64,000 nucleotides of DNA from Pseudomonadales bacterium (lineage in GTDB: Bacteria > Patescibacteriota > Microgenomatia > UBA1400 > PJMF01). Made by a program: the position numbers and the translations under genes. Location: NCBI GenBank assembly GCA_020632265.1, contig JACKFW010000001.1, positions 534,846 through 598,845 of the forward strand, in the 5' to 3' direction. Positions 2,855 through 62,825 of the stretch are shown one piece after another. Positions within the stretch are counted from its first letter, which is position 1, and every line of letters begins with the position of its first letter. The notes beneath the pieces were generated by a model. That model saw only the letters and a program-made list of their open reading frames with translations, was not told the DNA's origin and did no database searches.

Positions 2855-3996
2855 TTTAAGTAGCTTTTACTTTTTTTCCATAATTTTAAGTATATATTTA
2901 GAACCTTTTTCCAAGTTTGTTTTTGAGCAAAGTCTTTGGCATTTAATTCTGAGATTTTTTTAAATTTTGGTGATCCAAATAAATAGATAATTTTTCGATT
3001 CATCGATTCAATATTTTCAGCAATTAACATATATTTACTTCCAGGAAAATCCTCTAAATATGCTTTTTTTAGCTTATTAGAGTAAAATGCACATACCGTG
3101 TTTCCAGTTATTTGAGCCTCCAGAATAGATAAATATGAGGTGGCAAATATTAAGTCTTTCTTGACCAAATATCTGCTTACATTCTTTACAAATCCCGTTA
3201 CTTTGCCTAAATTAGCGCATTCTTCACTTAGTTCGCCCTCACCTACCCAAACTATATTGACTCTTTGTTCTTTAGCCCTAAATAACTTGACTAATTTTAT
3301 AAATTTTTCAACTTCATTATCTCTAGATAGTCTACCCAAAAAAGCAATGTTAATCTCATTTTTATTCCCATAAAGTTCGTTTTGATCTTCCTGAGATTCG
3401 TTGATTAAATTAGATTTTGTTAATCGTTTTGGGTTAATTGCTCCATAGGTAATATAGTCAGGCTTATCAAAATAGAATTTTTGAATATATGAACCCACAT
3501 GGATTGATCCAATTGCCAAGTTTGAATATACTAGTCTTTGAATCTTAGCAGATATTTCTACCGGAAATTTTGTCTCCCAACCATGAAAAGTTATAAATAC
3601 TTTATTTTTAATTAATTTGTAAATTGGTAATATCCACCAAAATACATCATGAACATGAATAATATCGGCACTTTCAAACAAATCCTTTAAATGTAAAAAG
3701 TATTTCCAAGTTTCAATTTTTTTTTCTGAACATGCGTGTGGAATTCTCATTACTATAACACCGTCACAATTTGCGGTCTCAGAAAGCTTTAAATCGTGTT
3801 GTTCAGTTATAACAATTACTTCATGACCCATTTTGACCAATAATGAATTTATCTCTTTTAAATGTATTTCAACTCCACCCAAGTGTGGAAGGTAATATTT
3901 TGCTAAGTGAATAATTTTCATTGAGTTAAAAATTAGCTTTGACTTTTGAGTATTTAATAAAGTCAATTTATTTGTAAGGTATTGAGTGCTATACAA
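2851..3996 (-). CDS. Family 4 (GT-B, group 1) glycosyltransferase
   Basis: GT4-like N-terminal Rossmann region (KIIHLAKYYLPHLGGVEIHL..GHEVIVIT) and a C-terminal E-x7-E-like region. It overlaps the upstream GT2 gene by 4 nt, consistent with an operon. Confidence 0.6.
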   Translation of the reverse strand: MYSTQYLTNKLTLLNTQKSKLIFNSMKIIHLAKYYLPHLGGVEIHLKEINSLLVKMGHEVIVITEQHDLKLSETANCDGVIVMRIPHACSEKKIETWKYFLHLKDLFESADIIHVHDVFWWILPIYKLIKNKVFITFHGWETKFPVEISAKIQRLVYSNLAIGSIHVGSYIQKFYFDKPDYITYGAINPKRLTKSNLINESQEDQNELYGNKNEINIAFLGRLSRDNEVEKFIKLVKLFRAKEQRVNIVWVGEGELSEECANLGKVTGFVKNVSRYLVKKDLIFATSYLSILEAQITGNTVCAFYSNKLKKAYLEDFPGSKYMLIAENIESMNRKIIYLFGSPKFKKISELNAKDFAQKQTWKKVLNIYLKLWKKSKSYLK

Positions 3997-5836
3997 ATTC
4001 TACTACATGAAACAATTTAAATGTAATCAAAGATATTCTATGAAAATTGTATTATTAATTACAATAAATTTATTTTTCATATATTTTACTGCGTTTAATA
4101 ATTTACCTATGGTTAGCGCACAAAGTATTGTTTTTGAGGATAATTTTACTAATGGATTTGAAAAGTGGGAATCAGTCAGAAACAATTTTGATATGTGGAG
4201 CATTATTGAAGACCAAGCAAATGTATTCATTCAAAGAGGCTCAACTTTAGCAGAGCTTGTACCCAAAGATTTGTATTGGAATCCAGAATGGAAAAACATT
4301 TCATATGAAGTTGACTATAAATATCTACAAGGAGCAGACAAAAATATTTCATTTGGATTTAAAGATATTTTCAACTGGTATGAAATTCATTTTGTGGAAA
4401 GGTCATACTTCTTATCTCACATAAAAAATGGACGAGTAGTTTGGGATCAAAGTGGTGTCGCCGATATCATTTATAACTTTACTCACCATATCAAAATCAG
4501 ACTTAATGAAGGATTGATCATTGTGACAATAGATGACAAAGAAATTATCAATGTTATTGATCCTACATTTGATAATGATTATGGAAAAATTGGTATTAAA
4601 GCAGGTACCGGTGCAGTTCATCCTACATGGGCAATCTATGACAACATTGTTGTAAAAATCTTTAACAATCTAAGCAAACTCGAATTACATCCCCAAAAAC
4701 AAACTGATCAATTATGGAAAAATGAAGAATATGATTCAGCAGGTAACTGGGCAAATTACAAAAATATTGAACAATGGGGATGCCTTATATCATCGCTTTC
4801 GATGGTGATGAATTATCATGGAATTACATTAATGCCCGATTCCAGTCCAGTAAACCCTAGCACTCTTAATAATTGGCTTAAATCTCAGCCAGATGGGTAT
4901 ATTGGCGAAGGACTAGTTAACTGGCTATCTGTAACAAGATTGTCAAAATTAATTAGTGATTTATATCAGACTCCAAAACTCGAATATAAAAGAATCAACT
5001 CAGAGAGTCTAGAAGAAGCGAATAATCAAATCCAAAAAAATAATCCAGTCATCCTACAAATTCCTGGTCATTTTTTTGTTGGCAATGGAATCATCGAAGA
5101 ATCTGATCAACCTGACTTATATATAATCGATCCATCATATAATTATGAAAAGTTTTCTCAACACAAAGAATTACTACTATCAACTAGAATTCTTGAACCA
5201 ACGTTTTCAGACCTAAGTTATATACATTTAAGTTTTCGCTCAGATCTTAATGTTTCTGTAACAAATGTTGCTGGCGAAGAAATTGAAAACATCCAATTTT
5301 TTGATGATTATTTAAGAGACTTTTTCTTGGATGAAAATGTAGTTGGCGGAGGATACACACAAAACAATTCACCAATAACCAATATTATTGAAATTGAAAA
5401 ACCAACAAGTGATATATATAAAATTGAAGTTTCACAAAATAAATTTGGCCCATTTAATTTATCGATATTCACTTACACAAAAAGTGGTGAGCTCACAAAC
5501 CTCACCTACTCAGGAATAGTCGGTATAAATAAATTGCAATTAAAGCTTATATATAACAATGAGGGAATTTCCATACTTGAAGAAGAGATAGACCTAAAAA
5601 CAATTGCAAATGATATTGAAGAATTATTTGATGAAAAAGAAATTATGAAACACTATGTATATTTAGAATTAAAAAAATATGTCAACTTAGCCATAAATAG
5701 TGGTGAAACAAATACTGAAAGATATTTAAATGCGTTAACTGATTTAATTAATTGGTATAGTCCCCAGATTACTGAAACAGGTTTTCAATATCTTATCCAT
5801 AGATCAAGTGAAATAAAAGGTATAATACAAAGGTGA
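3986..5836 (+). CDS. Secreted multidomain protein: LamG/DUF1080-like jelly-roll domain plus papain-fold C39-like cysteine peptidase domain
   Basis: A signal peptide starts at the internal Met near 4040 (MKIVLLITINLFFIYFTAFNNLPMVSA|QS). A C39-like Cys motif (EQWGCLISSLSMVMNYHG) is followed by a His (QIPGHFFVGNG) and an Asp (IIDPSY) that could complete a catalytic triad. The N-terminal W/F-rich beta domain looks like DUF1080 or concanavalin folds. Confidence 0.45.
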   Translation: MLYKFYYMKQFKCNQRYSMKIVLLITINLFFIYFTAFNNLPMVSAQSIVFEDNFTNGFEKWESVRNNFDMWSIIEDQANVFIQRGSTLAELVPKDLYWNPEWKNISYEVDYKYLQGADKNISFGFKDIFNWYEIHFVERSYFLSHIKNGRVVWDQSGVADIIYNFTHHIKIRLNEGLIIVTIDDKEIINVIDPTFDNDYGKIGIKAGTGAVHPTWAIYDNIVVKIFNNLSKLELHPQKQTDQLWKNEEYDSAGNWANYKNIEQWGCLISSLSMVMNYHGITLMPDSSPVNPSTLNNWLKSQPDGYIGEGLVNWLSVTRLSKLISDLYQTPKLEYKRINSESLEEANNQIQKNNPVILQIPGHFFVGNGIIEESDQPDLYIIDPSYNYEKFSQHKELLLSTRILEPTFSDLSYIHLSFRSDLNVSVTNVAGEEIENIQFFDDYLRDFFLDENVVGGGYTQNNSPITNIIEIEKPTSDIYKIEVSQNKFGPFNLSIFTYTKSGELTNLTYSGIVGINKLQLKLIYNNEGISILEEEIDLKTIANDIEELFDEKEIMKHYVYLELKKYVNLAINSGETNTERYLNALTDLINWYSPQITETGFQYLIHRSSEIKGIIQR

Positions 5837-7019: not shown

Positions 7020-7093
7020 GGTCGTATAGCTCAGTTGGTTAGAGCGCACGATTCACATTCGTGAGGTCCCTGGTTCGAGTCCAGGTACGACCA
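7020..7093 (+). tRNA. tRNA-Val (anticodon CAC)
   Basis: Cloverleaf read by eye. Acceptor GGTCGTA/TACGACC, D-stem GCTC/GAGC, anticodon stem CACGA/TCGTG with loop TTCACAT. Variable loop is 5 nt, T-arm CCTGG-TTCGAGT-CCAGG, discriminator A. No encoded CCA. Confidence 0.85.
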
Positions 7094-9613: not shown

Positions 9614-10210
9614 AATCGTATAAATTGTTTTTTCTGATTACTCAATTGTACCCAAATAGATCAACTATCTTTGTATATTACTTCAAAAAAACTAAAGCCA
9701 TTAATTATCAATATGATGTAATTTTTCAATTAAAATCTAGATATTTAATAAAAAAAGTGTATAATCTGATGGACATGGGGATGTATTGCTTTGACGTGAT
9801 ATGTACTTTAACATTTGCAGACCATCTTTGACTAAGAAAGATGTAAAACAGAGTCAAAAAATAATTGCAGATACAATTGCAACTAATGTTAAAAGCATGC
9901 TTACAGAGGTTAAATCCAATGTTGCTAGCTACTTAACACCAAATTACGCTTTCGTAGCATAATTCGGCATCAATTTAAATAATTTCATTGGCGTTTTTAA
10001 ACTTGATGATTCAACTTAAGTCAATGTGACGGGTTAGCATTCGTTTGTTGATGCAAACTTTAAGTAAAAATTGACAAAGATTGTGAAAAAAAGGTTTGTT
10101 TATTTTCCCATTTCACAGTAACAAAAACAAACTAAGTCTGTAGATAATGTTAGCTTGCTATTGCGGACACGAGGTCATTCCTCGTCATCTCCACAGATAC
10201 CTACTTATTG

Positions 10211-11313: not shown

Positions 11314-12354
11314 TTAAACATTCTTATTGATTTGATTGTTTTTAAGTTTAGAAACAGTTTTGCTAGCAACCCATACTAGTGGAATCCAAGTAATTGAATA
11401 TACTAAAACCCAGATTCCAAAATATCCAACAACCCTTAATAATTCTTTAAGTGAAGTCCAAGCTCTTAGAATTTCTTCTTTGATGGTTGGTCTAGCAGAT
11501 GGATTAAAATATCTTTCGCTATCCGCAGCTGTAATCGAAATTGAGGAGTATTCAACCTGCTGTTCAACTTGATCAAGGCTTTTTTCAGCAGCTGTAATTT
11601 GTTTTGTCAACCTATCAATTTCAATTTGAAATCTTCTCTTTTCAACTTCAGTTTTAGCATCTAACAAAGCAGCTTCTTTTAATGATTTTTGATCTAATAG
11701 AGCCTGAACGGTTTCTGTCGTACCTACCAACCTCCCAGTAATGTCACTTGCATCAATATTTTCATTCACAACTTTATCAACATTTTCAGTTACTCTTGAA
11801 GTTGCTTCCTCAAACTTTGCAACAGGAACTTTTACATACAAGTCTCCACTATTGTAATCTCCATTAGAAGAAATACTTGAATTTAACACTTTTCCATCAA
11901 TGCTTAAAAAGTATTCTTTCATTCCTCTCAAATAGCTAGGAACATCGTTTACTACAACAGAATGATATGAGGATTTTTGATAGACTCTATCATTAAGATA
12001 TAAATAATCATCAGCAAAATACGGAATTGGCATTGATCCCGTTGTGATCGAATCATTCATTTTATCTATGAGCATTGGCTCTGGCATTGGCTCTACAGGA
12101 AACTCATCTGAAACAGGAAAATCAGGACTTGGATATTGCATATAAGCATCAGTATCCCGTGTAGACTGATCCATACCTTGCATATACGGCTCCATGTCTT
12201 GCATACTCACAGCATCTTGGCCTCGCATACGACTAAAAGATGGCAATATTTGAGAATTTTTTAAGAAAGAAAATCTCGAGTTCATTGCAAATACAATTAA
12301 ACTTGTTACTACACCTAAAAATACCACTACAAAAAAAGTTTGTTTATTTTTCAT
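11314..12354 (-). CDS. Membrane-anchored protein with Met/Asp/Pro-rich low-complexity region, coiled coil and C-terminal TM hairpin (DUF4349-like architecture)
   Basis: N-terminal signal anchor (FFVVVFLGVVTSLIVFAM). Central coiled coil (EVEKRRFQIEIDRLTKQITAAEKSLDQVEQQ). C-terminal hydrophobic hairpin (VVGYFGIWVLVYSITWIPLVWVA). Confidence 0.4.
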   Translation of the reverse strand: MKNKQTFFVVVFLGVVTSLIVFAMNSRFSFLKNSQILPSFSRMRGQDAVSMQDMEPYMQGMDQSTRDTDAYMQYPSPDFPVSDEFPVEPMPEPMLIDKMNDSITTGSMPIPYFADDYLYLNDRVYQKSSYHSVVVNDVPSYLRGMKEYFLSIDGKVLNSSISSNGDYNSGDLYVKVPVAKFEEATSRVTENVDKVVNENIDASDITGRLVGTTETVQALLDQKSLKEAALLDAKTEVEKRRFQIEIDRLTKQITAAEKSLDQVEQQVEYSSISITAADSERYFNPSARPTIKEEILRAWTSLKELLRVVGYFGIWVLVYSITWIPLVWVASKTVSKLKNNQINKNV

Positions 12355-23396: not shown

Positions 23397-23437
23397 AAAA
23401 AGCCCCTCGAGAATTTCTCGAGGGGCTTTCATTTTTA
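23397..23437. terminator. Bidirectional rho-independent terminator (GC-rich 11-bp stem AGCCCCTCGAG / CTCGAGGGGCT flanked by A-run and T-run)
   Basis: Perfect hairpin with AAAA before and TTTCATTTTT after. It serves the minus-strand small gene 23452..23667 and any plus-strand readthrough. It also lies inside, and so argues against, the 74-aa ORF 23283..23507. Confidence 0.8.
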
Positions 23438-30927: not shown

Positions 30928-32160
30928 TCATTGTTTACTATCTATTTTTTTTGGATGAACAAGTAATGGATATTTATTTTGCAGATCACTACCTAATGTA
31001 ATAAGATTTGGCATATTATCTGGAACAGACAAAGCACTATGAGTTAATACTGCCCTTCCAAGTTTTTTTAGAAGAAATTCCTTATCATCATCACCAAACT
31101 TATCTCTAACCATTAGCATTAGTCTTCTAATTTCATTTTCATCGAAAATATCACTTATAACAGGTATTTCCCAACCATCATCTTCTTTATGAAGTATGTG
31201 AAAATTTTTTTCACTTAGAGTTAATTTTTTATAATTTTTATTTTGCAATCTCGCTCTTATTTCCTCAATTTTTTTCTCTAAGTTATCTGTAGCTTGCTGA
31301 GTGGCATAACCATAGCAAAACACAATATTTGTCTTATTATCAACTAAACCATAAGCTATTTGATATGCGTCATCTATGTGTCGAACTGCATTTGACTTAT
31401 CTGTACCACCTAAAGTCCAATCATCTCCAAAAACCACAGCCCCAATTTTATCTTGTTCATTCGGGGGCAGACCACTCCTCAAAAGAAATCGATAAACTGC
31501 CAATTGATTTATTTGTCTAAATTCACAAGTTAAAGCAATTCTCTGTTTTCCTCTTTCAAGAAGAAATAAAATAGGAGGAAAGCCTCTTTTATACCAATAA
31601 CGAGAGGCGTAGTTTTCATCTTTGTAAAGGAAGTCGACATTGACTCTGTATTTACCTTTATCAATCAATAAGGCTGGTAATTTTGAAAGAACAAAGGGAC
31701 CCATGTCCTTTATTTGTTTAACTAAATAATCATCTTTAAGAAAATCTGGATACAAAGGATCATTCTCAGGATTATATTCTTTAAAGCCTTTTCTCATCAA
31801 AAATTCTAAAAACATTTTAGTTACTTGAAAACCCGATGGTTCCCATTTTTTATTCCCTTCTACTATCTCTCCTGATGGATAATATTCTCTTGCTACTGTT
31901 GACCAATAAATATTATCCCCTCCGGCTAATTTGAGAATCTCCTCCCACCTTTTTTCCATCATTTCTTTAATTTCCCTTTCTGAAAGGTAATTTACTGCCA
32001 AAATTAGTCTTTTAACAAGACCGAGGTCATTTGCTGATGGTGAAAGTTTAGAAATCCATTCTTGAAATCTTCCAGGATTAATATGTCGAGAAATCAAATC
32101 AGAATGTGAAAGACCAATATCTATTTCTCCATTTCCTGTATTGACATCTATTTTTCTCAT
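30928..32160 (-). CDS. Hypothetical protein (410 aa), no recognisable domain
   Basis: Long ORF co-directional with the suf genes and immediately downstream of sufD. No Walker motifs. One conserved-looking block reads GAVVFGDDWTLGGTDKSNAVRHIDDAYQIAYGLVDNKTNIVFCYGYATQQ. Confidence 0.55.
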   Translation of the reverse strand: MRKIDVNTGNGEIDIGLSHSDLISRHINPGRFQEWISKLSPSANDLGLVKRLILAVNYLSEREIKEMMEKRWEEILKLAGGDNIYWSTVAREYYPSGEIVEGNKKWEPSGFQVTKMFLEFLMRKGFKEYNPENDPLYPDFLKDDYLVKQIKDMGPFVLSKLPALLIDKGKYRVNVDFLYKDENYASRYWYKRGFPPILFLLERGKQRIALTCEFRQINQLAVYRFLLRSGLPPNEQDKIGAVVFGDDWTLGGTDKSNAVRHIDDAYQIAYGLVDNKTNIVFCYGYATQQATDNLEKKIEEIRARLQNKNYKKLTLSEKNFHILHKEDDGWEIPVISDIFDENEIRRLMLMVRDKFGDDDKEFLLKKLGRAVLTHSALSVPDNMPNLITLGSDLQNKYPLLVHPKKIDSKQ

Positions 32161-34826: not shown

Positions 34827-35603
34827 CTACAAACCAGCATATCCTTTTTTTTCAAGTTTATTTACAATTGAAGAATCACCACTTTCAACAATTTTTCCAT
34901 TTATCATAACGTGAACAAAATCTGGCTTCAAATAGTCTAAAATTCTCTGATAATGCGTGATTAAAATTATACCAGTATTATATTTTTTTATGATGTTATT
35001 AACTCCCTGAGACACTTTCTTGATCGCATCAATATCCAATCCTGAATCTGTTTCATCTAAAATCGCAAATTTGGGTTCAAGCAATGTCATTTGCAAAATT
35101 TCGAGTTGCTTTTTTTCTCCACCACTAAAACCTTCATTCAAGCCTCTACTTAAAAACTCAACATTAATATTTAAGTCTTTGGCAATTTTTTGTAAATTTT
35201 TTCTAAAATCAATTGCCTTTTTAAATTGACGCTCTGGCCGATCTTTAAATCTCGATTCATAAGCCAACTTCAAAAAATTTTGTACTCTAACTCCTGGAAC
35301 TTCCACCGGATATTGAAAAGCCAAAAACAAACCTAAATTTGCTCTTTCGTCCGGTGACATCTCCAAAATATTTTCACTAAGTTCCACTTTTTTACCATTT
35401 TTGTTTTGTAAATAAACACTTCCGCTCAAGACATCATAATCTGGATGTCCTGCCAAGGTATTGGCTAAAGTTGATTTTCCAGATCCATTAGGACCCATAA
35501 TCGCATGGATTTCTCCAGGATTTACTATAAGGGAAAGCCCTTTAATAATCTTATTTTCAGCGATACTAACTTTCAAATTAGTGATTTGGAGTTGATTTAT
35601 CAT
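34827..35603 (-). CDS. sufC: Fe-S cluster assembly ATPase SufC
   Basis: Walker A (GPNGSGKST), ABC signature (FSGGEKK), Walker B (FAILDETDSGLD) and an H-loop. No TM domain. Confidence 0.9.
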   Translation of the reverse strand: MINQLQITNLKVSIAENKIIKGLSLIVNPGEIHAIMGPNGSGKSTLANTLAGHPDYDVLSGSVYLQNKNGKKVELSENILEMSPDERANLGLFLAFQYPVEVPGVRVQNFLKLAYESRFKDRPERQFKKAIDFRKNLQKIAKDLNINVEFLSRGLNEGFSGGEKKQLEILQMTLLEPKFAILDETDSGLDIDAIKKVSQGVNNIIKKYNTGIILITHYQRILDYLKPDFVHVMINGKIVESGDSSIVNKLEKKGYAGL

Positions 35604-37108: not shown

Positions 37109-37693
37109 TTAGATCAAACTCATCTGTATTCCAGCATCTTTTTTTGGAGTAAAACTAAAATCTACTGAACACTCCACTAGTCGATTCCACTTATTTTTGA
37201 ACTTTACATAGCCAGTTTTCAAACCAAAGTCATAAACATCTCTGGTCACTTCTACATCCTGTAAACAATATTTTTTTAACTTATCCCATTCTCGATTTTG
37301 AAAGTATTTAATTGCATCAAGACCATTACCGCTCTTGCCAATGCCCAAAGTTTCCTGAGCCACGGCATCCAAACTAATTCTATGACCAGCGCTTTCTTTG
37401 ATTCTGGTCAAAACATCAAGCGTAGGAATTTTGGTAATATCAGCACTATAATAAGGAATAAATGTTTGCATATCAAAATTATCAACATTAAAACCAATTA
37501 CAACATCAGCTTTTTCTAACAAAGGAAATAATAATGGTAAATCTTTTTCAAAATAACTTTTCATTTCACCTTTACCACTCGAGCCTTCACGAACACAAAC
37601 TCCTACAAAAGAAATTCCCAATCTATCAGGAAAAAATCCTCCAACTTCGTCAAAGGTCTTTTTAGTTTCAACATCTAAAATTACTTGCAACAT
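37109..37693 (-). CDS. Stand-alone DEDDy-type 3'-5' exonuclease (DNA polymerase A proofreading-like / RNase D-like fold)
   Basis: Exo I (ILDVETKKTF), Exo II (IGFNVDNFDMQ) and Exo III (YCLQDVEVTRDVY) motifs, correctly spaced. Confidence 0.55.
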   Translation of the reverse strand: MLQVILDVETKKTFDEVGGFFPDRLGISFVGVCVREGSSGKGEMKSYFEKDLPLLFPLLEKADVVIGFNVDNFDMQTFIPYYSADITKIPTLDVLTRIKESAGHRISLDAVAQETLGIGKSGNGLDAIKYFQNREWDKLKKYCLQDVEVTRDVYDFGLKTGYVKFKNKWNRLVECSVDFSFTPKKDAGIQMSLI

Positions 37694-37814
37694 CTATTCT
37701 TTCTAATATAAATCAAAAAAATAATATCACTAAAAAAATAATATATAGTATTAATTAAAAAATATTAATTAATATATTAACAAAATTTACAGAAAAATTT
37801 AAAATTCTGAATTG

Positions 37815-38426
37815 TTAGCTTATCACTTCTGAATACCTTTTCTCAACCTCAGCCCAATTTACGACGTTCCAAAATGCTTTTGCGTAATCTGGTCTTCGAT
37901 TTTGGTAATTGAGATAATATGCATGCTCCCAAACATCCAAACCCAAAATAGGGGTTTTTCCTTGAGAAATTGGACAATCTTGATTGGCGGTAGACATAAC
38001 TTGTAAACCAGAGTCATTTTCGTAAGTAAGCCATGCCCATCCAGAACCAAATCTTGCTCCAGCAATTTTTTCAAATTCTGATTTAAATTCTTCTAAACTA
38101 CCAAATTTTAATACTATTGCTTCATTGAGTGCGCCAGTAGGTTCCATGCCACCATTTGGAGATAAAACGCTCCAAAATAAACTGTGATTAAAATAACCGC
38201 CACCATTATTAATGACTGTTTGACGGATTGATTCTGGTACAGAATCTAGATTGCTTAATATTTCTTCAATAGTCATTGCTAATAAATCTGTTTGATTCTC
38301 AAGAGCGGTATTTAGATTATTAATATAACCTTGATGATGTTTGGTATGATGAATTTCCATAGTTTTAGCGTCTATATATGGCTCTAAAGCATCATACTCA
38401 AAATTTAATTTTGGAAGTGTGAACAT
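37815..38426 (-). CDS. Fe/Mn-family superoxide dismutase
   Basis: [14 protein letters not shown] at the N-terminus and DVWEHAYYL at the C-terminus. About 203 aa. Confidence 0.9.
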
Positions 38427-38442
38427 ATGATTTTATCTCCTT

Positions 38443-38736
38443 TTATTTACTTTTTTTATTTAAAAAATCCAAAACGTCTTGTACTAAATAACTAACAAAA
38501 GCATACACAAAGATAGCAAATAAAGTTGTAAATTCCAAAATGAATTTACCGTTAACATTTGGCGAAGGAAATGCTAAAAGAAATGGTGAAAGTAAAGGAA
38601 TAGTATTTTGATATATAAAACTTACAAATTGAGATTGTGTATTAGCTCCAAATAATTTTAAAAGAAATCTAATGATTAAAGATACTTCCACTAAAGAAAA
38701 AACAAAGTTTGAAAGTTCTTTCAAATATTTATTCAT
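38443..38736 (-). CDS. Small two-TM membrane protein, YggT/Ycf19-like
   Basis: 97 aa with two hydrophobic helices and an IIRFLL motif reminiscent of YggT. Weak. Confidence 0.35.
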   Translation of the reverse strand: MNKYLKELSNFVFSLVEVSLIIRFLLKLFGANTQSQFVSFIYQNTIPLLSPFLLAFPSPNVNGKFILEFTTLFAIFVYAFVSYLVQDVLDFLNKKSK

Positions 38737-39587
38737 ATCGAATTTATTTCATTAGATATGCGAGTTGCTTCGATGATTTTATCTCTCATAATTGTTTTTA
38801 TGTATGTTTCAATTTTGTCACGATCCTGATGAGAGGATAACATTTTTTTTACATCTGATCCAAACCAAATTGGATCTCCTGCCATAAATCCTTTTGCTCC
38901 ACTTTCGACACAGATTCTTAAGTTTTGTTTAAATTCTTCATAACCAATGCCTCTACCATTATATATCCAAGGTATATCAAGCTCTGCAGTTATTGTTACT
39001 GCGGATAAAGAGTCTCCTAAAAATTCAAGAGAAATTAAATCACAACTTCTAGAAAATTCACTTATTGCCTGTAATTGAATTTCTAACATTAATTCATCTG
39101 TCACTTCTTCGGTTCCCGGATGATAAACCATCAGCTCCAATAAAAAGTCTATTCCCTCATAATCGCAATAATCGTTAATTTCGGCTACAAATTGCTTCTT
39201 TTTCATTGCTTCAGGCTCTTGTGGATGATAATAGAGTTCAAGTTTTGCTAATCCATAATTATTTCTAATTTGTTCTATTCCCCAATTTTCTGAAATTATT
39301 GGTATTGCAAGAGGATCTAAACTATCAGATTTTTTCTCAAGCGACATTACTAAACCAGTGCTACTGGATTTTCTGATAATATTGGCAAAGTCAAAATCAG
39401 GGTCAACAATTACTCCAGAAACTTCTGGAGAGATATATTCCATAATTTTCCCAGACATAAAATCTAAAGCATCTTTGTGTTCAAGATGATCAATATCTAA
39501 ACCCATTGATTCAGCTAAAGTAGAAATTCTTGAAAAATCTAAAAGGGAATAAACTCCGCTGGAATTTTGAATATTATGAAGCTTCAT
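38733..39587 (-). CDS. Class I aldolase of the LacD/tagatose-1,6-bisphosphate aldolase family
   Basis: Three blocks are collinear with LacD. VSGVIVDPDFDFANIIRKSSSTGLVMSLEKKS matches ASSILLDPEYGL...AGLLLAYEKTG. DFLLELMVYHPG matches PFFLEILTYDE. GAKGFMAGDPIW matches GAKFNGVLCGRATW. Confidence 0.6.
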   Translation of the reverse strand: MKLHNIQNSSGVYSLLDFSRISTLAESMGLDIDHLEHKDALDFMSGKIMEYISPEVSGVIVDPDFDFANIIRKSSSTGLVMSLEKKSDSLDPLAIPIISENWGIEQIRNNYGLAKLELYYHPQEPEAMKKKQFVAEINDYCDYEGIDFLLELMVYHPGTEEVTDELMLEIQLQAISEFSRSCDLISLEFLGDSLSAVTITAELDIPWIYNGRGIGYEEFKQNLRICVESGAKGFMAGDPIWFGSDVKKMLSSHQDRDKIETYIKTIMRDKIIEATRISNEINSI

Positions 39588-39609
39588 ACCTTTAAGTATG
39601 AAGCTTCAC
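39576..39609. promoter_or_regulatory. Perfect 14-bp inverted repeat ATGAAGCTTCATAC-N6-GTATGAAGCTTCAT overlapping the start codon of the LacD-like gene, 27 nt downstream of the pnp stop. Each arm is itself the 10-bp palindrome TGAAGCTTCA.
   Basis: Read directly. The left arm encodes M-K-L-H of the aldolase on the minus strand. Confidence 0.6.
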
Positions 39610-39635
39610 TAATTTGTTTTCAATAAGAGTTAGGT

Positions 39636-42008
39636 TTAACGGTCTTTTCTTTCAACTCTTGGGCGATCGTTGTTTCCGCCACTTCGATCGTTGTTTCCGC
39701 CACTTTGATCGTTGTTTCCGCCACTTCTGCGATCGGAATAACCTCCACCTCTTCGATCGGAATAACCACCACCTCTTCGATCATCGCGTTGATTTCCTCT
39801 ATCTCTACCACCTCTAAAAGCTGGTCTACTCGATCTAGATTCTCGTTTTGAATTAATTTCAGTTTGTTGTTCTGCTGTCAACATACTTAAGCCAATCTTG
39901 CCATCGTCTTTGATTTCACCAATTCTTACATGAACTTTATCTCCAACTTTTAGTAAATCGTTCGCATCTTTTACAAATTCAGTATTCATTGCAGAAACAT
40001 GAACTAAACCTTCTTTTCCACTTAAGTATTCAACAAAAGCACCATAACCCTCAACTCTGGTAACTATGCCATCAAATTCTTCACCTACTTCTACAACTCT
40101 CATCATATTAGTGATAATTTTCATGGCTGCATCAATATTAGCTTGTTCTGGAGAAGAAATATTAACTAAGCCAACTTCTTTTTCCTTGTCTTCATCAACA
40201 CTAATTTCAGCGCCAGTTTGTTCAATAATACTTTTGATCATCTTTCCGCCTGGACCAATTAGTTCACCAATTCTACTAATTGGAATGGTAACTTGTTCAA
40301 CCTTTGGAGCATACACTGAAAGTTCTTTTCTAGGCGTTTTTATTACCTTTAACATCTCACCCATAATGTGAATTCTACCTAAACGTGCCTGCTCTAATGC
40401 TTGCTCAAGAACATTTCTTGGAATTCCTTTGAGCTTGATATCCATTTGAATTGCAGTAATTCCCTCCGAAGTACCAGCAACTTTAAAATCCATATCACCC
40501 ACGTGATCTTCAAGACCTTGAATGTCAGAAAGAACAACGTATTGTTTTCCATCGCTCATCAAGCCCATGGCAATTCCAGCAACTGGACGCTTGATTGGAA
40601 CTCCTGCTGCCATTAGCGAGAGGGTTGAACCACACACTGATGCTTGAGAAGTTGATCCATTTGAACTCATAATTTCGGAAACTACATTAATTGTATATGG
40701 GAACTCTTCTTGACTTGGTAACATTGGTTTTAATGCTCTTTCAGCCAATGCTCCATGTCCAATTTCTCTACGTTTTGCAAAACCAAATCTGCCTGCTTCT
40801 CCAGAAGCATATGGAGGCATATTATAGTGGTGGAAATATTTTCGATCTTCTTCACCAGTAATGCTCTCAATCAATTGACCCCTAGAAGGATCGCCGAGTG
40901 TTGTGATAGTAGCAGCCTGAGTAGCACCTCTTTTGAACATAGCTGAGCCATGAGTTCTTGGAAAAATATCTAGTTCGCACCAAATTTGTCTAATTTCCTC
41001 AGTTTTTCTTCCGTCTGGTCTAATACCATCAATTAAAATTAATTCTCTAGCAGCTCGTTTGGTTAGGGAATAAAGTGCTGTAGAAATATCTTTTTCAGAA
41101 ATTTCCTCACCTTCTGCAACATCTTCATTTAATTCTAAAACCAATTTGGCTTTAAGTTCATCAAGGCCTGAATCACTAATCAAGAGTCCTTGTTTCTTAA
41201 CAATTTCTTTTAACTGTAAAATATTATTTGAATAAATTTGGTCTGCTAAAGCTTCAACTTTTGCCGTTGCATCTTTAGTTTCATCGTCAATCAATTCAAC
41301 TTTTTCTTTGCCAATTTCAGCTACTACTTCTTGAATTGCAAGACAAATTTTGCCCATTTCATCTTGTGCACGAACTAATGCTTCAACCATAACATCTTCG
41401 GTAACTTCATTAGCACCAGCTTCAACCATAACCACTGCATCTCCGGAACCAGCAACGATTAAATCAAGATCACTCGTGTCTCTCTGATCATGGGTTGGAT
41501 TGGTCATAAACTGACTTGTTTGCTTGTTATAACCAATTCTTAATCCTGCCATCGGACCATCGAAAGGGATTTCGGAAATTGCTAAACCAATTGCACTTCC
41601 TAAAAGCCCAAGCATGTCTGGATCGTTTTGCCCATCAAAAGAAAAAACAGTATTGATTACCTGAACTTCATTGGTGATTCCCTCAGGAAAAAGTGGTCTT
41701 AAAGAACGATCGATGACACGTGCTTTTAAAATCACATCATCTAAAGGTCTGCCGTCTCTTTTAACCCATCTAGAACCTTTAATTATTCCAGCTGAATATA
41801 GCTTTTCAGCAAACTCAACTGAAAGTGGGAAATATCCCAAATTTACTTTTCTTCCCAAAGCAACCGTGCTATGAACTACTGTTTCGCCACAAGTTACCAA
41901 CACTGCTGCAGATACTTGCTCTGAAAACTTACCGACTTCAATATTGACGGTTTTATCACCCACTTGAATGTCCTTCTTATAGGTGTTTGGATATTTAGGA
42001 TATGACAT
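39636..42008 (-). CDS. pnp: Polynucleotide phosphorylase with an Arg/Gly-rich (RGG-like) C-terminal tail
   Basis: Two RNase PH domains, KH and S1 domains (GKVHVRIGEIKDDGKIGLSM). The tail reads RGGRDRGNQRDDRRGGGYSDRRGGGYSDRRSGGNNDQSGGNNDRSGGNNDR and is encoded by 18-21-bp DNA repeats at 39640-39790. Confidence 0.95.
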   Translation of the reverse strand: MSYPKYPNTYKKDIQVGDKTVNIEVGKFSEQVSAAVLVTCGETVVHSTVALGRKVNLGYFPLSVEFAEKLYSAGIIKGSRWVKRDGRPLDDVILKARVIDRSLRPLFPEGITNEVQVINTVFSFDGQNDPDMLGLLGSAIGLAISEIPFDGPMAGLRIGYNKQTSQFMTNPTHDQRDTSDLDLIVAGSGDAVVMVEAGANEVTEDVMVEALVRAQDEMGKICLAIQEVVAEIGKEKVELIDDETKDATAKVEALADQIYSNNILQLKEIVKKQGLLISDSGLDELKAKLVLELNEDVAEGEEISEKDISTALYSLTKRAARELILIDGIRPDGRKTEEIRQIWCELDIFPRTHGSAMFKRGATQAATITTLGDPSRGQLIESITGEEDRKYFHHYNMPPYASGEAGRFGFAKRREIGHGALAERALKPMLPSQEEFPYTINVVSEIMSSNGSTSQASVCGSTLSLMAAGVPIKRPVAGIAMGLMSDGKQYVVLSDIQGLEDHVGDMDFKVAGTSEGITAIQMDIKLKGIPRNVLEQALEQARLGRIHIMGEMLKVIKTPRKELSVYAPKVEQVTIPISRIGELIGPGGKMIKSIIEQTGAEISVDEDKEKEVGLVNISSPEQANIDAAMKIITNMMRVVEVGEEFDGIVTRVEGYGAFVEYLSGKEGLVHVSAMNTEFVKDANDLLKVGDKVHVRIGEIKDDGKIGLSMLTAEQQTEINSKRESRSSRPAFRGGRDRGNQRDDRRGGGYSDRRGGGYSDRRSGGNNDQSGGNNDRSGGNNDRPRVERKDR

Positions 42009-42329: not shown

Positions 42330-43412
42330 TTATAAACTTGTTCCAGTTACGTAGAAGTTAAATGAATATTCATTATTAGACTCGTTTGACTCCGTGATGG
42401 TATTGTTATAATCTGCCTTGATATTTACATGTGCTGTGCCAGTTTTATAGACAATACAATGCAAGGATGTCTCAACTGATTGTCCTGGATCTAAATGAGG
42501 TAAACCAACTGAGCAAACTGTGTTTCCTCCCTGAGAATTTGTTATCGTTGCTTTGATATTTGATAAGAAAAAATATTTTGCTGTACCTTGGTTTTTAAGA
42601 TTTACCACAAGGTAATTCCAGTTTTGAGCTTGAACGGGATTATCAGTAAAATAAGCATTAGTGATTACTAAGTCAGGCAAAGATGCTGGTGGTAATGCAG
42701 TTGGCGTTGGCGTAGCTGTCGGCGTAGGTGTAGCTAGTGGAGTTGGTGTAGCTGTTGGCGTTGGCACAGGGGTTGGGTTAGAGGTTGATACCGGTGTAGG
42801 CGAAGGCGTTGATGTAGATGTAGGGCTAGATGTGGTTGTTGGGCTAGATGTGGTTGTTGGGCTAGATATTGGCGCTGTGGTTAGGTTTGAAGCTGATGTT
42901 GGCGAAGTTGAAGGTGTTGATGTGGATTGAGTTGATGAAAAAAATCCATTTTCTGAATTATTTCCTTCATTGTTCATAGAATCCTTACCTTGGTCACTGT
43001 TATTTGAGGTTTCTCCTGAATCTTCAGATAAATCAGAGTTTTTTATTGATAAAAAGCCATTATCCAGATTTCCATCTATTTTTTCTTGATCAAAATTATC
43101 AGAATTATAATCCAAAGCTACAACGCTATTTCCGATAGCGCTGTCCACCAATTTCTTTTTTTCATTTTCTTGTGCAGAAACTACCAAAGTTGTCACAATA
43201 AATAATATAAGAAATACTGAAAATGCTAAGTTTATCTTTTTCTTTTTTGAAAAGTCTTTAAACAAAGTGATAATTTTCTTGTACTCATTCTTAATAGTCT
43301 TAATATTTTTAATATTCTTAACATTCTTAATATCTTTTTTCGAGACTTTTTTGAATAAAACTAAAACCTTCTTATATTCATTATTTAAGTTAAATAAATT
43401 GCTTGTTTTCAT
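42330..43412 (-). CDS. Membrane-anchored surface protein with Pro/Thr/Ser-rich linker and C-terminal CARDB-like domain
   Basis: The N-terminal cytoplasmic region has an internal duplication (NEYKKVLVLFKKVSKK / NEYKKIITLFKDFSKKKK) and KNIKN repeats. A TM helix is followed by about 70 aa of PT/ST repeats and a C-terminal beta domain ending ESNESNNEYSFNF, which is CARDB-like. Confidence 0.55.
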   Translation of the reverse strand: MKTSNLFNLNNEYKKVLVLFKKVSKKDIKNVKNIKNIKTIKNEYKKIITLFKDFSKKKKINLAFSVFLILFIVTTLVVSAQENEKKKLVDSAIGNSVVALDYNSDNFDQEKIDGNLDNGFLSIKNSDLSEDSGETSNNSDQGKDSMNNEGNNSENGFFSSTQSTSTPSTSPTSASNLTTAPISSPTTTSSPTTTSSPTSTSTPSPTPVSTSNPTPVPTPTATPTPLATPTPTATPTPTALPPASLPDLVITNAYFTDNPVQAQNWNYLVVNLKNQGTAKYFFLSNIKATITNSQGGNTVCSVGLPHLDPGQSVETSLHCIVYKTGTAHVNIKADYNNTITESNESNNEYSFNFYVTGTSL

Positions 43413-43506
43413 ATCCTATAATTATATCATTCATTAATAATATAGTCAATAAATTCTAATTTATTTATGAAATAAACAATGTTTATAAGAAAAAGCTATT
43501 TACGAA

Positions 43507-44202
43507 TTATTTCGAACGCTTGATTAATTGGTTATAAAGAATCACAAAAGCAAGAGTTCCAATAGGAAGAGTAATCAATAAGCCCACAAAAAGAGCCATA
43601 ATCCCCGAGTACATAAGTATAATTACTGCTGACAAAAATCCAACTAAATCCCACTTTATTCCATCTGTTAACTTCCCACTGGCTTTTAGGGCTTCGATCG
43701 GACCAAGACCTTTATCGACTACAAAATAAGGTGTAAACATATATTTAATAGAAAAGATAATGCCAGGAATAATAAAAAGTAAAAAACCTCCAAGAATTAT
43801 TAACATCATTAATATTTGAGCCCCAAAATATTTCAAAGATTTTGGTAGCATTGATGTGAAAGTATCAACACTAACTTTTTTACCTCTAACAACCGAAAGA
43901 AGCGCATTAATCACACCCATACTCACGGTAATTTGAACTACAAAATATATAGCGTATAAAATTAAAAATAGTCCTGAACTTTGATTAAGTTCATTCGCAA
44001 GAATTGAGTAGATAAATCCAATCGTTAAAGGCAATGCATTAATTGCATATATTGTAATCCACTCTTGTTTAAAAATTTTCCAAGCTTTTTTAAAAGTTTC
44101 ACTTATAAAAAAACCTTCATTAAGAACCGAGACTTTATCTGACATTTTTTCCTTTAATTTCTTTGATAAAAAAATATTATTACGAACAATCAGATTATAC
44201 AT
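43507..44202 (-). CDS. Polytopic membrane protein (DUF975-like architecture), unknown function
   Basis: 5-6 TM helices. The pattern KAWKIFKQEW...YFGAQILMMLIIL...IIPGIIFSIKYMFTPYFVVD resembles the YciC/DUF975 family. Weak. Confidence 0.4.
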   Translation of the reverse strand: MYNLIVRNNIFLSKKLKEKMSDKVSVLNEGFFISETFKKAWKIFKQEWITIYAINALPLTIGFIYSILANELNQSSGLFLILYAIYFVVQITVSMGVINALLSVVRGKKVSVDTFTSMLPKSLKYFGAQILMMLIILGGFLLFIIPGIIFSIKYMFTPYFVVDKGLGPIEALKASGKLTDGIKWDLVGFLSAVIILMYSGIMALFVGLLITLPIGTLAFVILYNQLIKRSK

Positions 44203-44288
44203 TAATCTTATTTAGCCCGCTATATTCACTTTGTTTGGATCTCTAGAAATTAGCTTTGATTTGGTGTTGGGAAATTCACTAAAATAAA

Positions 44289-44558
44289 TTATTTACTTAA
44301 ATCTAATCTATCAAGAAGTTTTCTATATCTTTCCTCACTTCTAGACAATAAAAAATTTAATAGTCTTCTACGTTTAGCCACCTGTTTAAGTAAGCCTCTT
44401 CTGGAGTGGTTATCTTTTTTATGTGCTCCAAGATGCTTTGTTAACTCTTGAATTGAAGCAGTTAATAAAGCAATTTGAACTTCTGGAGAACCAGTGTCAC
44501 CTTCAAAAAGTGCGTAGTCTTTAATAATTTGAAGTTTTTGTGCTTTAACTAAAGCCAT
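44289..44558 (-). CDS. rpsO: 30S ribosomal protein S15
   Basis: 89 aa. The ...[20 protein letters not shown]... block is diagnostic. An AGGAAAG Shine-Dalgarno is preceded by the inverted repeat TGCTTCTT-AA-AGAAGCA in the leader. Confidence 0.9.
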
Positions 44559-51572: not shown

Positions 51573-52295
51573 TTATTCAACAATTTCTTTAATCAATGTT
51601 CTAACGTATTTCATCATTGGAATAATATATGGGTAATCAAATCTGCTTGAACCTAAAACTCCAACGTGAATTACTTGATCATCTATATTGAAGGTCATAT
51701 GTATTATGCCAATCAAATCCAAATCCTTATTTCCTAATTCTGGACCATAAATAACTTGAACCAAATTCTCGCTTGTTCCAGATCTAAAAATTTCCTCTAA
51801 CATTGATTCTTCTTCAATTAATTGAAGTACATGCCTCATTACTTTGATATCATAAAATTCGGGCATTTGGAGTAAATTTGCATAACCGGCATGATAGAGT
51901 TGATCATCTTCGATTAAAGTTATGGCTAGCGCGCCAGATTTATCTGCCAAAACCTTGGTAATTTGATGAAACATTTTATCAATCTTACTACGGCTATTCC
52001 AAATTTTATCTTTGGCTGATACTTCATCAGCAACAGATAATTCTTTTTCTTTCATCAATTCATTTACATATAATTTCATGGCAACAGATGTGGGAATACG
52101 ACCAGCACTACTATGTGTTTTGGTTAAATAACCCTGATTTGTTAAATAAACCATTTCATTTCTAATAGTTGCTGGAGAAACACCAATGGCAAACTTTTTA
52201 TCAATTGTTTCAGACCCAACCGGCTGGGCTGTGGCAATAAACTCCTCAATTAGAGCTCTTAGTATTTGAACCTGTCTAGCAGTTAGATCAATCAT
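51573..52295 (-). CDS. hrcA: Heat-inducible transcription repressor HrcA (short, 240 aa)
   Basis: The N-terminal winged helix LTARQVQILRALIEEFIATAQPVGSETI...SPATIRNEMVYLTNQGYLTKTHSSAGRIPT matches the HrcA consensus. The operon order is hrcA-grpE-dnaK-dnaJ. Confidence 0.8.
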   Translation of the reverse strand: MIDLTARQVQILRALIEEFIATAQPVGSETIDKKFAIGVSPATIRNEMVYLTNQGYLTKTHSSAGRIPTSVAMKLYVNELMKEKELSVADEVSAKDKIWNSRSKIDKMFHQITKVLADKSGALAITLIEDDQLYHAGYANLLQMPEFYDIKVMRHVLQLIEEESMLEEIFRSGTSENLVQVIYGPELGNKDLDLIGIIHMTFNIDDQVIHVGVLGSSRFDYPYIIPMMKYVRTLIKEIVE

Positions 52296-62486: not shown

Positions 62487-62560
62487 TAGCAAGGGAGAGA
62501 TTTGAACTCTCGACCTTCGGTTTATGAATCCGATGCTCTAACCAGCTGAGCTACCTTGCC
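62487..62560 (-). tRNA. tRNA with anticodon CAT (Met; or Ile2 if lysidinylated)
   Basis: Minus-strand cloverleaf GGCAAGG-TA-GCTC-AGCTGGTTA-GAGC-A-TCGGA-TTCATAA-ACCGA-AGGTC-GAGAG-TTCAAAT-CTCTC-CCTTGCT-A. It has a G1-U72 wobble. Confidence 0.8.
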
Positions 62561-62667: not shown

Positions 62668-62736
62668 CATAAAAACGCGCGGGATAGTGTACGGTGCACG
62701 TGAGGCTCATAATCTCGCAGGCTGGGTTCGACTCCC
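62668..62736 (+). tRNA. Probable second CAT-anticodon tRNA (compact, 69 nt; C1xA72 mismatch)
   Basis: CGCGGGA-TA-[GTG-TACGGTG-CAC]-G-TGAGG-CTCATAA-TCTCG-CAGG-CTGGG-TTCGACT-CCCAG-TCCCGCA-A. The T-arm and acceptor are good. The D-arm is short and the anticodon stem has two G-U pairs. A strong terminator follows. Confidence 0.5.
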
Positions 62737-62748
62737 AGTCCCGCAAAT

Positions 62749-62771
62749 TAAATAAAATGACTCCCTCTGGG
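62749..62771 (+). terminator. Rho-independent terminator (ACTCCC-TCTG-GGGAGT followed by T7) immediately after the plus-strand tRNA
   Basis: Read directly from the sequence. Confidence 0.8.
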
Positions 62772-62825
62772 AGTTTTTTTATTTAAGTGTGTGGTTAACT
62801 TTGAGTTGTTTGTCGTAGACAAAAC

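Follow-up and report, generated by a model that had tools for sequence, protein, structure and literature searches.

The inverted repeat that lies between the polyribonucleotide nucleotidyltransferase gene (pnp) and the aldolase-like gene downstream of it most likely serves, in the form of an RNA hairpin, to mark the end of the pnp message, and is unlikely to be an on/off switch for the aldolase. In the explanation that we favor, and to which we give slightly better than even chances on the basis of sequence comparison and folding prediction, the hairpin would be a 3'-end element of the pnp transcript that shares a 48-nt intergenic gap with the promoter of the aldolase gene. An earlier note on this DNA had offered three functions for the repeat, i.e., punctuation or stabilization of the pnp 3' end, gating of aldolase translation, and a double operator for a dimeric regulator; the first of these was found to fit best, and most of the relatives that have lost the hairpin carry a canonical terminator after pnp. 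Known elements are combined here in a compact but fairly ordinary way, and no new kind of regulatory mechanism is revealed.

Both genes are on the minus strand of the window, by which we mean the whole 64-kb stretch of DNA that was analyzed, and which derives from a CPR/Patescibacteria (Microgenomates-like) genome. The upstream gene, pnp (39636–42008; 790 aa), matched the NCBIfam equivalog NF008805 with 843 bits against a cutoff of 471, and its product carries the Pfam domains RNase_PH, KH, S1 and PNPase, followed by a low-complexity RGG/GGNND tail that makes up the C-terminal ~80 aa; the stop codon occupies 39636–39638. The downstream gene (38733–39587; 284 aa) was recognized as a DeoC/LacD-family class I aldolase-like gene by Pfam PF01791 (25.6 bits; cutoff 23.8), its matches to the NCBIfam tagatose-bisphosphate aldolase models fell below their cutoffs, the kinship being distant, and it overlaps the next gene, which is yggT-like, by 4 nt. 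When aligned, the motif M-[KR]-L-x-x-I opens nearly all of 36 homologues of the aldolase, and M1 is kept in at least 90% of the rows of the N-terminal alignment (A1); as judged from these sequences, the minus-strand ATG at 39585–39587 is the true aldolase start. The two genes are neighbors in most of the 78 genome loci described below, pnp directly preceding the aldolase with a gap of typically 14–260 nt.

A repeat search located the two arms of the repeat where the earlier note had placed them, at 39577–39589 and 39596–39608, each 13 nt long and 100% complementary to the other across a spacer of 6 nt. The repeat had been described as perfect over 14 of 14 pairs, of which 13 stood; the 14th is A·C on the plus strand, which becomes a G·U wobble when the sense (minus-strand) RNA folds, as the second arm reads GTATGAAGCTTCAC and ends in CAC, not CAT. 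Folding of the minus-strand RNA bore out the proposed hairpin, with a stem of 15 bp containing 5 G-C pairs, a UAAA loop and a free energy of −21.6 kcal/mol (z = −8.6; an equally good fold in 0 of 200 shuffles), and this stem was dominant also when a wider region of 121 nt was folded. Its 5' arm (GUGAAGCUUCAUACU; 39595–39609, minus strand) consists of promoter spacer and −10 box sequence and starts 27 nt after the pnp stop codon, exactly as had been claimed; the loop occupies 39591–39594; and the 3' arm (GGUAUGAAGCUUCAU; 39576–39590) reads GG followed by AUG AAG CUU CAU, i.e., the 2 nt before the start and aldolase codons 1–4. In this fold the start codon is indeed buried, in that the AUG and the 2 nt preceding it are wholly base-paired. 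A search of the hairpin region against Rfam 15 returned no match at the gathering threshold, and below it (E ≤ 10) only noise, the best hits being to snoRNA and miRNA models of no relevance (E ≥ 0.27). A mini-ORF in the 5' arm (GUG-AAG-CUU-CAU-ACU-UAA) was set aside as a by-product of the palindromy, its frame and length not being kept in relatives.

For comparison, aldolase relatives were collected from 78 genome loci and 35 metagenome loci, the metagenome scan yielding just a few new close relatives, and 10 further contigs with DNA were added through exact-protein look-ups; all of the relatives came from Pacebacteria, Woesebacteria or Patescibacteria MAGs. Those with an aldolase at least 60% identical to that of the window were defined as its close relatives (the W-clade), comprising 23 distinct upstream sequences (alignment A3), and a family-wide promoter table was built of 78 distinct upstream sequences, 12 of them from the W-clade. 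A start hairpin was counted as strong at −15 kcal/mol or lower, and for a terminator the stem had to be followed at once, on the transcribed strand, by a U-rich tract with 5 or more U in 8.

Conservation of the hairpin in orthologous loci, which had been named as a check, was found in 15 of the 23 close relatives, where a hairpin of −19 to −25 kcal/mol is retained in the same register with a stem of 14–19 bp. When the paired columns of the alignment were read as such, 81% of the cells were paired, against 34–52% when the partners were slid by 1–3 columns. The pairing is moreover kept through compensatory change. At codon 2, an exchange between AAG (Lys) and AGG (Arg) is mirrored by one between CUU and CCU in the 5' arm (C-G, n = 13; U-A, n = 4), and pairs of the outer stem also switch on both sides, e.g., from U-A to A-U; the covariation score was reached by 3 of 500 shuffles and rests mainly on the one clean pair and the variable outer pairs. 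The departures from strict pairing are of a kind that RNA tolerates: the closest relative (L117) has a G·U at a pair that is A-U in the others, L007 and L086 have additional G·U pairs, and a one-base bulge occurs in L085, L086 and L124. Of the 15 hairpin-bearing sequences, 13 fold more stably as the sense strand than as the antisense strand. Synonymous codon choice in the coding arm is strongly biased: in the hairpin-bearing genes, every Arg at codon 2 (13 of 13) is encoded by AGG, which makes up 8% of Arg codons elsewhere in the same genes, and all 15 genes use CUU at codon 3, compared to 26% elsewhere, whereas in the eight hairpin-less relatives these codons are relaxed (AAA, AGA and AAT at codon 2; UUA, UUG and CUC at codon 3). 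These comparisons show that selection acts on the hairpin in its sense-strand RNA form. It was also considered whether a hairpin overlapping the start is a feature of the whole family, which was rejected, as the strong ones are confined to the clade with aldolases at least 60% identical. A distant sub-clade with a gap of 14 nt has only a small stem, GAGUGU-AUG-ACACUC.

The 5' arm is at the same time part of a conserved promoter. A promoter scan of the minus strand identified TTGAAA-17-CATACT at 39623–39595, in which the −35-like hexamer TTGAAA is at 39618–39623 and the −10-like hexamer CATACT, at 39595–39600, falls inside the 5' arm and ends 7 nt before the ATG. CATACT is invariant across all 23 close relatives, with or without the hairpin; in the −35 element of the same 23, T15-T16-G17 is nearly invariant and A18-A20 is invariant; and the spacing between the two is 17 nt in all 12 of the W-clade sequences that the family-wide table contains. 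From the end of the −10 box to the ATG, the sequence varies freely among the 23 (TAAAGGT, TTTACAGT, GTTTTTAGT and others) and includes no conserved Shine-Dalgarno sequence; the AAAGG of the window loop, which stops 1 nt short of the AUG, was rejected as a candidate, as it is likewise not conserved. A second promoter-like match in the beginning of the coding sequence, TTCATA-18-CATAAT, was treated as chance, its −10 part varying with codons 4–5 (CAAAAT, TTTAAT, TCTAAT).

All sequence-level features of a leaderless promoter are present at the aldolase locus, including a −35 element within the range of 16–18 nt from the −10 box. Since only 7 nt separate the −10 box from the ATG, the aldolase mRNA is predicted to be leaderless, starting at the AUG or 1–2 nt before it, and so to be without the 5' arm; the full hairpin would therefore form only in RNA that is read through from pnp, and it is only to such RNA that sequestration of the start codon should apply. 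The proposal that the hairpin gates aldolase translation thus had to be revised, as the 5' arm is a conserved promoter element and the aldolase's own mRNA is predicted to be without it. Should the 5' end of that mRNA instead lie upstream of 39609, the hairpin would act as a translational block in its 5'-UTR.

A stable, G-C-containing stem-loop directly downstream of pnp is a feature of intrinsic terminators, and the sequence that follows the stem was examined accordingly. In the window the tail is AUAAUAUUCAAAAUU after the stem, or UUCAUAAU after the GC core, with at most 4 U in 8; two scans called no intrinsic terminator on the minus strand at the window hairpin, and the U-tract is below the threshold. 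Because of this poor U-tract, the window hairpin is referred to as a weak terminator or exonuclease barrier and not as a canonical terminator. In 5 of the 15 hairpin-bearing loci (L118, L007, L085, L086 and L124), the start hairpin qualifies as a terminator in its own right; in these, a GGC core is followed by UUUUUAAU or UUUCUAAU. A terminator-like call was also obtained on the plus strand (tail CTAATTTGTT), and was dismissed as a consequence of the palindromy, there being no plus-strand gene to terminate at that place, which is antisense to pnp and the aldolase.

The distribution of other terminators among the close relatives is complementary to that of the hairpin. A separate terminator, consisting of a hairpin plus a U-run and located between the pnp stop and the −35 box, was found in 0 of the 15 hairpin-bearing loci. 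Among the eight hairpin-less relatives, one (L008) has another gene between pnp and the aldolase, and of the seven in which the two genes adjoin, five have a canonical terminator; these are of the classical GC-rich type and directly follow pnp (L005, L006, L120 and L121, and by eye L123, with a loop of 10 nt), and the other two (L119 and L122) have neither hairpin nor terminator. In the family as a whole, a strong start hairpin was scored in 14 loci, one of which has a separate terminator as well, compared to 26 of the 51 loci that lack such a hairpin (Fisher p = 0.005, uncorrected for phylogeny); the one exception appears to be an artefact, in which the scoring window caught the terminator itself. 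It is to be noted that the groups being compared are largely clades, and the mutual exclusion of hairpin and terminator may reflect only one or two evolutionary events. Moreover, canonical terminators are rare on the minus strand between 30 and 46 kb of the window, and about half of the distant loci are also without one, so that the absence of a terminator after pnp is weak evidence. The exclusion is predicted if the hairpin is a terminator or 3' barrier, and also if it insulates the aldolase from read-through, and is not predicted if it is an operator.

In the explanation that we favor, the aldolase would be transcribed from its own sigma-70-type promoter, TTGAAA-N17-CATACT, into a leaderless mRNA that carries the 3' arm only, and the full hairpin would form only when polymerase reads through from pnp. 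In this read-through RNA, the hairpin would stall or terminate transcription, weakly in the present genome and better in the relatives with GGCUUUUU or GGCUUUCU tails, and would block exonucleolytic trimming in the 3'→5' direction, by which the 3' end of the pnp mRNA would be defined and protected. Either as a by-product or as a second benefit, the AUG of the aldolase would be buried in the read-through RNA, and aldolase would be made from its own promoter only. Termination, protection and translational silencing by the hairpin are all deduced here from the form and conservation of the sequence. The hairpin resembles intrinsic terminators and protective 3' stem-loops in being a stable stem-loop a few tens of nt after a stop codon, in having a stem flanked by A-rich sequence on its 5' side and A/U-rich sequence on its 3' side, and in being lost where a canonical terminator is present; it further resembles the former in the proper U-run tails of five relatives (GGCUUUUUAAU, GGCUUUCUAAU). 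Stem-loops at the 3' terminus are a classical barrier to 3' exonucleases of the PNPase type. It differs from typical intrinsic terminators in its long, AU-rich stem (5 G-C pairs in 15 bp) with a sub-threshold U-tract in this genome, and in being placed outside free intergenic DNA, in that its 5' arm doubles as the promoter spacer and −10 box of the next gene and its 3' arm as the first four codons of that gene. If this model is right, an ultra-small CPR genome has packed a pnp 3'-end structure, the promoter of the next gene and a translation start into about 35 bp, and the first four codons of the aldolase have been chosen partly for pairing with the gene's own −10 box.

Among the alternatives, the one that survives best is that the hairpin is primarily a translational insulator, which would keep ribosomes off the aldolase AUG in bicistronic pnp-aldolase RNA or in a leadered mRNA of the aldolase, so that aldolase synthesis would be uncoupled from pnp transcription with no need of a role at the 3' end. 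We regard this as possible but rather unlikely as the primary function, although it may hold alongside the favored explanation. It accounts for the pairing of the AUG and its 2 preceding nt within a stem of −21.6 kcal/mol and is consistent with the poor U-tract of this genome; also, judged from the coordinates, the pnp stop at 27 nt upstream is too far away for terminating ribosomes to melt the stem. It equally predicts the exclusion of terminators, because without read-through there is nothing to insulate. However, a leaderless-type start in the middle of a long transcript and without a Shine-Dalgarno sequence would be poorly translated in any case, so that the need for a 15-bp clamp is doubtful; the five relatives with terminator-grade U-tracts right after the stem also argue against it. 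As in other hairpins that sequester a start codon, such as the MS2-type occlusion in phages and inhibitory hairpins in 5'-UTRs, the AUG would be fully paired in the read-through RNA, but there is no sign here of a trigger that would open the structure (ligand, temperature or upstream translation), and the aldolase's own transcript is predicted to be without the inhibitory arm.

A role of the repeat in the DNA is clearly less probable, and we consider it improbable that the site is an operator, to which a dimeric or tetrameric repressor would bind over the −10 box, the start site and positions +1 to +12 of the aldolase promoter. The span from the −10 box to +12 is a classical position for a repressor, the repeat is perfectly symmetrical, and both of its arms contain a palindrome of their own in this genome, namely TGAAGCTTCA, which was the basis on which a double operator had been suggested. 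It was found, however, that palindromic TGAAGCTTCA is limited to the window, where it occurs in both arms, and to L117, where it occurs in the 3' arm only; the other 13 of the 15 sequences with a hairpin are without the internal palindromes, and the core of their 5' arm is TGAAGCCTCA, TGAGGCTTCA or a variant thereof, none of which is palindromic. What is conserved instead is the complementarity of one arm to the other, and the complementary changes in the arms fit base-pairing and not a fixed sequence for protein recognition, as do the tolerance of G·U-type asymmetries and of a one-base bulge and the greater stability of the sense fold in 13 of 15. The fully conserved arm of 13–19 bp also exceeds the typical length of a half-site. 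A search for other sites, which the earlier note had recommended, returned the two arms as the sole exact copies of TGAAGCTTCA in the 64-kb window, and copies with one mismatch were at the chance level (8 in the window, compared to 4.3 ± 2.3 expected), giving no signal of a regulon. No DNA-binding regulator was recognized among the 13 flanking ORFs scanned, the Pfam assignments of which were NUDIX, ABC ATPase, RNase H-like, SOD, YggT, CARDB, a weak UPF0259, S15 and IF-2, with one ORF of 87 aa having no Pfam match. Lastly, the coincidence of repeat loss with the gain of a pnp terminator is not predicted by an operator.

Cleavage of the stem by RNase III, which would separate the pnp RNA from that of the aldolase and could yield a translatable 5' end close to the start, comes next and is also given a low probability. 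In E. coli, pnp expression is controlled by RNase III at a 5' hairpin, and efficient cleavage by this enzyme usually needs about two helical turns, i.e., about 20 bp or more. The hairpin described here does provide a perfect double-stranded segment between two cistrons, and RNase III and PNPase are both among the RNases retained in CPR bacteria (PMC12641178). Nevertheless, the stem of 14–19 bp is at or below the usual length for efficient cleavage and shows no conserved internal-loop or bulge features, the aldolase's own promoter makes processing unnecessary, and nothing in our data is specific for cleavage. Like the hairpin of E. coli pnp autoregulation by RNase III, the present one is long and associated with the pnp mRNA, but the former is in the 5' leader and the latter 3' of pnp, and no homology is implied. 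An extension of this idea, which we hold to be still less probable, is a processing switch, in which RNase III cleavage or stalling of PNPase at the stem would produce a 5' end near the start codon, turn a silent bicistronic RNA into a translatable leaderless aldolase mRNA and thereby tie aldolase output to the capacity for RNA decay; were this the case, the strikingly conserved adjacency of pnp and the aldolase would reflect a functional partnership, for example one in which CPR bacteria bring PNPase and a glycolytic-type enzyme together in a degradosome-like association.

That the repeat is a functionless chance palindrome or the by-product of a small duplication is hardly credible and was effectively refuted by its conservation, for although the genome is AT-rich (GC of the window, 29–35%) and the arms double as a 12-nt direct repeat (TATGAAGCTTCA twice, 22 nt apart), the direct repeat is a mere consequence of self-palindromic arms in one lineage, and the hairpin has persisted, with compensatory changes and a codon bias in the coding arm, in relatives whose protein identity is as low as 60%. 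In 300 simulations with a first-order Markov model, moreover, perfect inverted repeats with arms of 13 nt or more and a spacer no longer than 10 nt arose 0.023 times per 64 kb. The earlier judgment that chance was unlikely is thereby upheld. Two such repeats were observed in the window, i.e., the present one and a canonical terminator at 23399–23429.

The leaderless arrangement extends well beyond the clade that has the hairpin. In 69 of the 78 distinct family loci, a [TC]A[TC]A[AC]T box precedes the start codon by 6–9 nt (11 nt in one), the individual distances being 6 nt in 34 loci, 7 nt in 24, 8 nt in 4, 9 nt in 6 and 11 nt in 1, and the box is exactly TATACT in 53 of the 69; the −35 element is mostly unrecognizable in the distant relatives. 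A Pribnow box at 6–8 nt from the start codon is a published signature of leaderless transcription (PMC6028130). Like the leaderless promoters known as group C in GeneMarkS-2 and those of Actinobacteria and Deinococcus, the aldolase promoters have the −10 box at 6–9 nt from the start codon, with a −35 box 17 nt away and no Shine-Dalgarno sequence that is conserved; they differ from the known examples in belonging to the CPR/Patescibacteria lineage and in having TATACT or CATACT as the consensus in place of TATAAT, with the start site predicted from motifs. No description of leaderless genes or mRNAs in CPR/Patescibacteria was found in the literature. The TATACT box, which in the majority of the 78 loci precedes the ATG by 6–7 nt, constitutes sequence-level evidence for leaderless expression in CPR bacteria of the Microgenomates type, which matters for the prediction of gene starts and for expression studies in uncultured organisms. 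Among the other genes of the window, a (TG)ATATAAT sequence was seen at 8–9 nt before the ATG, and a Shine-Dalgarno-like motif was present in just 12 of 60 ORFs.

In close relatives, pnp was found to be followed in a fixed order by the LacD-like aldolase gene, yggT, the Fe/Mn superoxide dismutase gene and the RNase H-like gene, a conserved block that lies at 37109-42008 (-) in the window and was compared with L001-L124, the collected loci encoding relatives of the aldolase. The adjacency of pnp and the aldolase gene is itself kept by the majority of the 78 genomes, even where aldolase identity falls to about 33%; the linkage between an RNA-decay enzyme and an aldolase-fold protein is persistent across relatives. 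On the other side of pnp, the window differs from the classical rpsO-pnp operon, in which the two genes are adjacent. Here, two genes intervene between rpsO (S15; 44289-44558, -) and pnp within the stretch 42330-44558 (-), namely a 231-aa ORF, whose sole match is a weak one to UPF0259, and a gene for a 360-aa CARDB-domain protein.

The pnp-aldolase junction takes other forms among the relatives. In a distant sub-clade (L026, L029, L032, L095, L097, L100 and L109, around locus position 3985-4030 or 1485-1530), only 14 nt, TAAGGTATACTGAGTGTATG, separate the pnp stop from the aldolase start; the stop codon directly adjoins a -10-like box, and the start codon is flanked by a small GAGUGU-AUG-ACACUC stem. 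In Patescibacteria BroJett025 (L008), an insert of about 1 kb (L008 2939-4000) separates the two genes, and the start hairpin, i.e., the stem-loop that spans the aldolase start codon, has been reduced to 9 bp by decay, whereas the predicted aldolase promoter, TTGAAA-17-CATACT, is intact. Several relatives also carry opposite-strand ORFs of 139-175 aa between the aldolase gene and yggT (L119 2362-2832; L121 2373-2900; L122 2318-2737; L124 2399-2890), which may be mobile; two of these gave weak or faint matches to HNH endonuclease (PF01844), and two had no Pfam match. The window has no such ORF in this gap.

In five window genes that lack a Shine-Dalgarno sequence (11314-12354, 30928-32160, 34827-35603, 42330-43412 and 51573-52295, all -), a strong (TG)ATATAAT box precedes the ATG by 8-9 nt, and a Shine-Dalgarno-like motif was found in only 12 of the 60 window ORFs. 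Together, these sequence signals suggest that leaderless or near-leaderless expression is widespread in this CPR genome, of which a literature search retrieved no description.

The window PNPase is 790 aa long and ends in a low-complexity C-terminal tail of about 80 aa (RGGRDRGNQRDDRRGGGYSDRRGGGYSDRRSGGNNDQSGGNNDRSGGNNDR...; 39639-39800, -), encoded by tandem repeats of 21- and 24-nt units (39664-39774, -). Because the PNPases of relatives are similarly long (769-795 aa), the clade may share an RGG-like tail of the RNA-binding or condensate type.

Elsewhere in the window, a perfect 15-nt inverted repeat with a 1-nt spacer, AAAGCCCCTCGAGAA/TTCTCGAGGGGCTTT (23399-23429), is a canonical bidirectional intrinsic terminator, so the genome does employ GC-rich terminators with A/U tracts. 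RNA genes include a tmRNA (9777-10196, +; 76 bits) and three tRNAs (7020-7093, 62487-62560 and 62678-62746), the last directly followed by an imperfect 18-nt inverted repeat (62748-62786).
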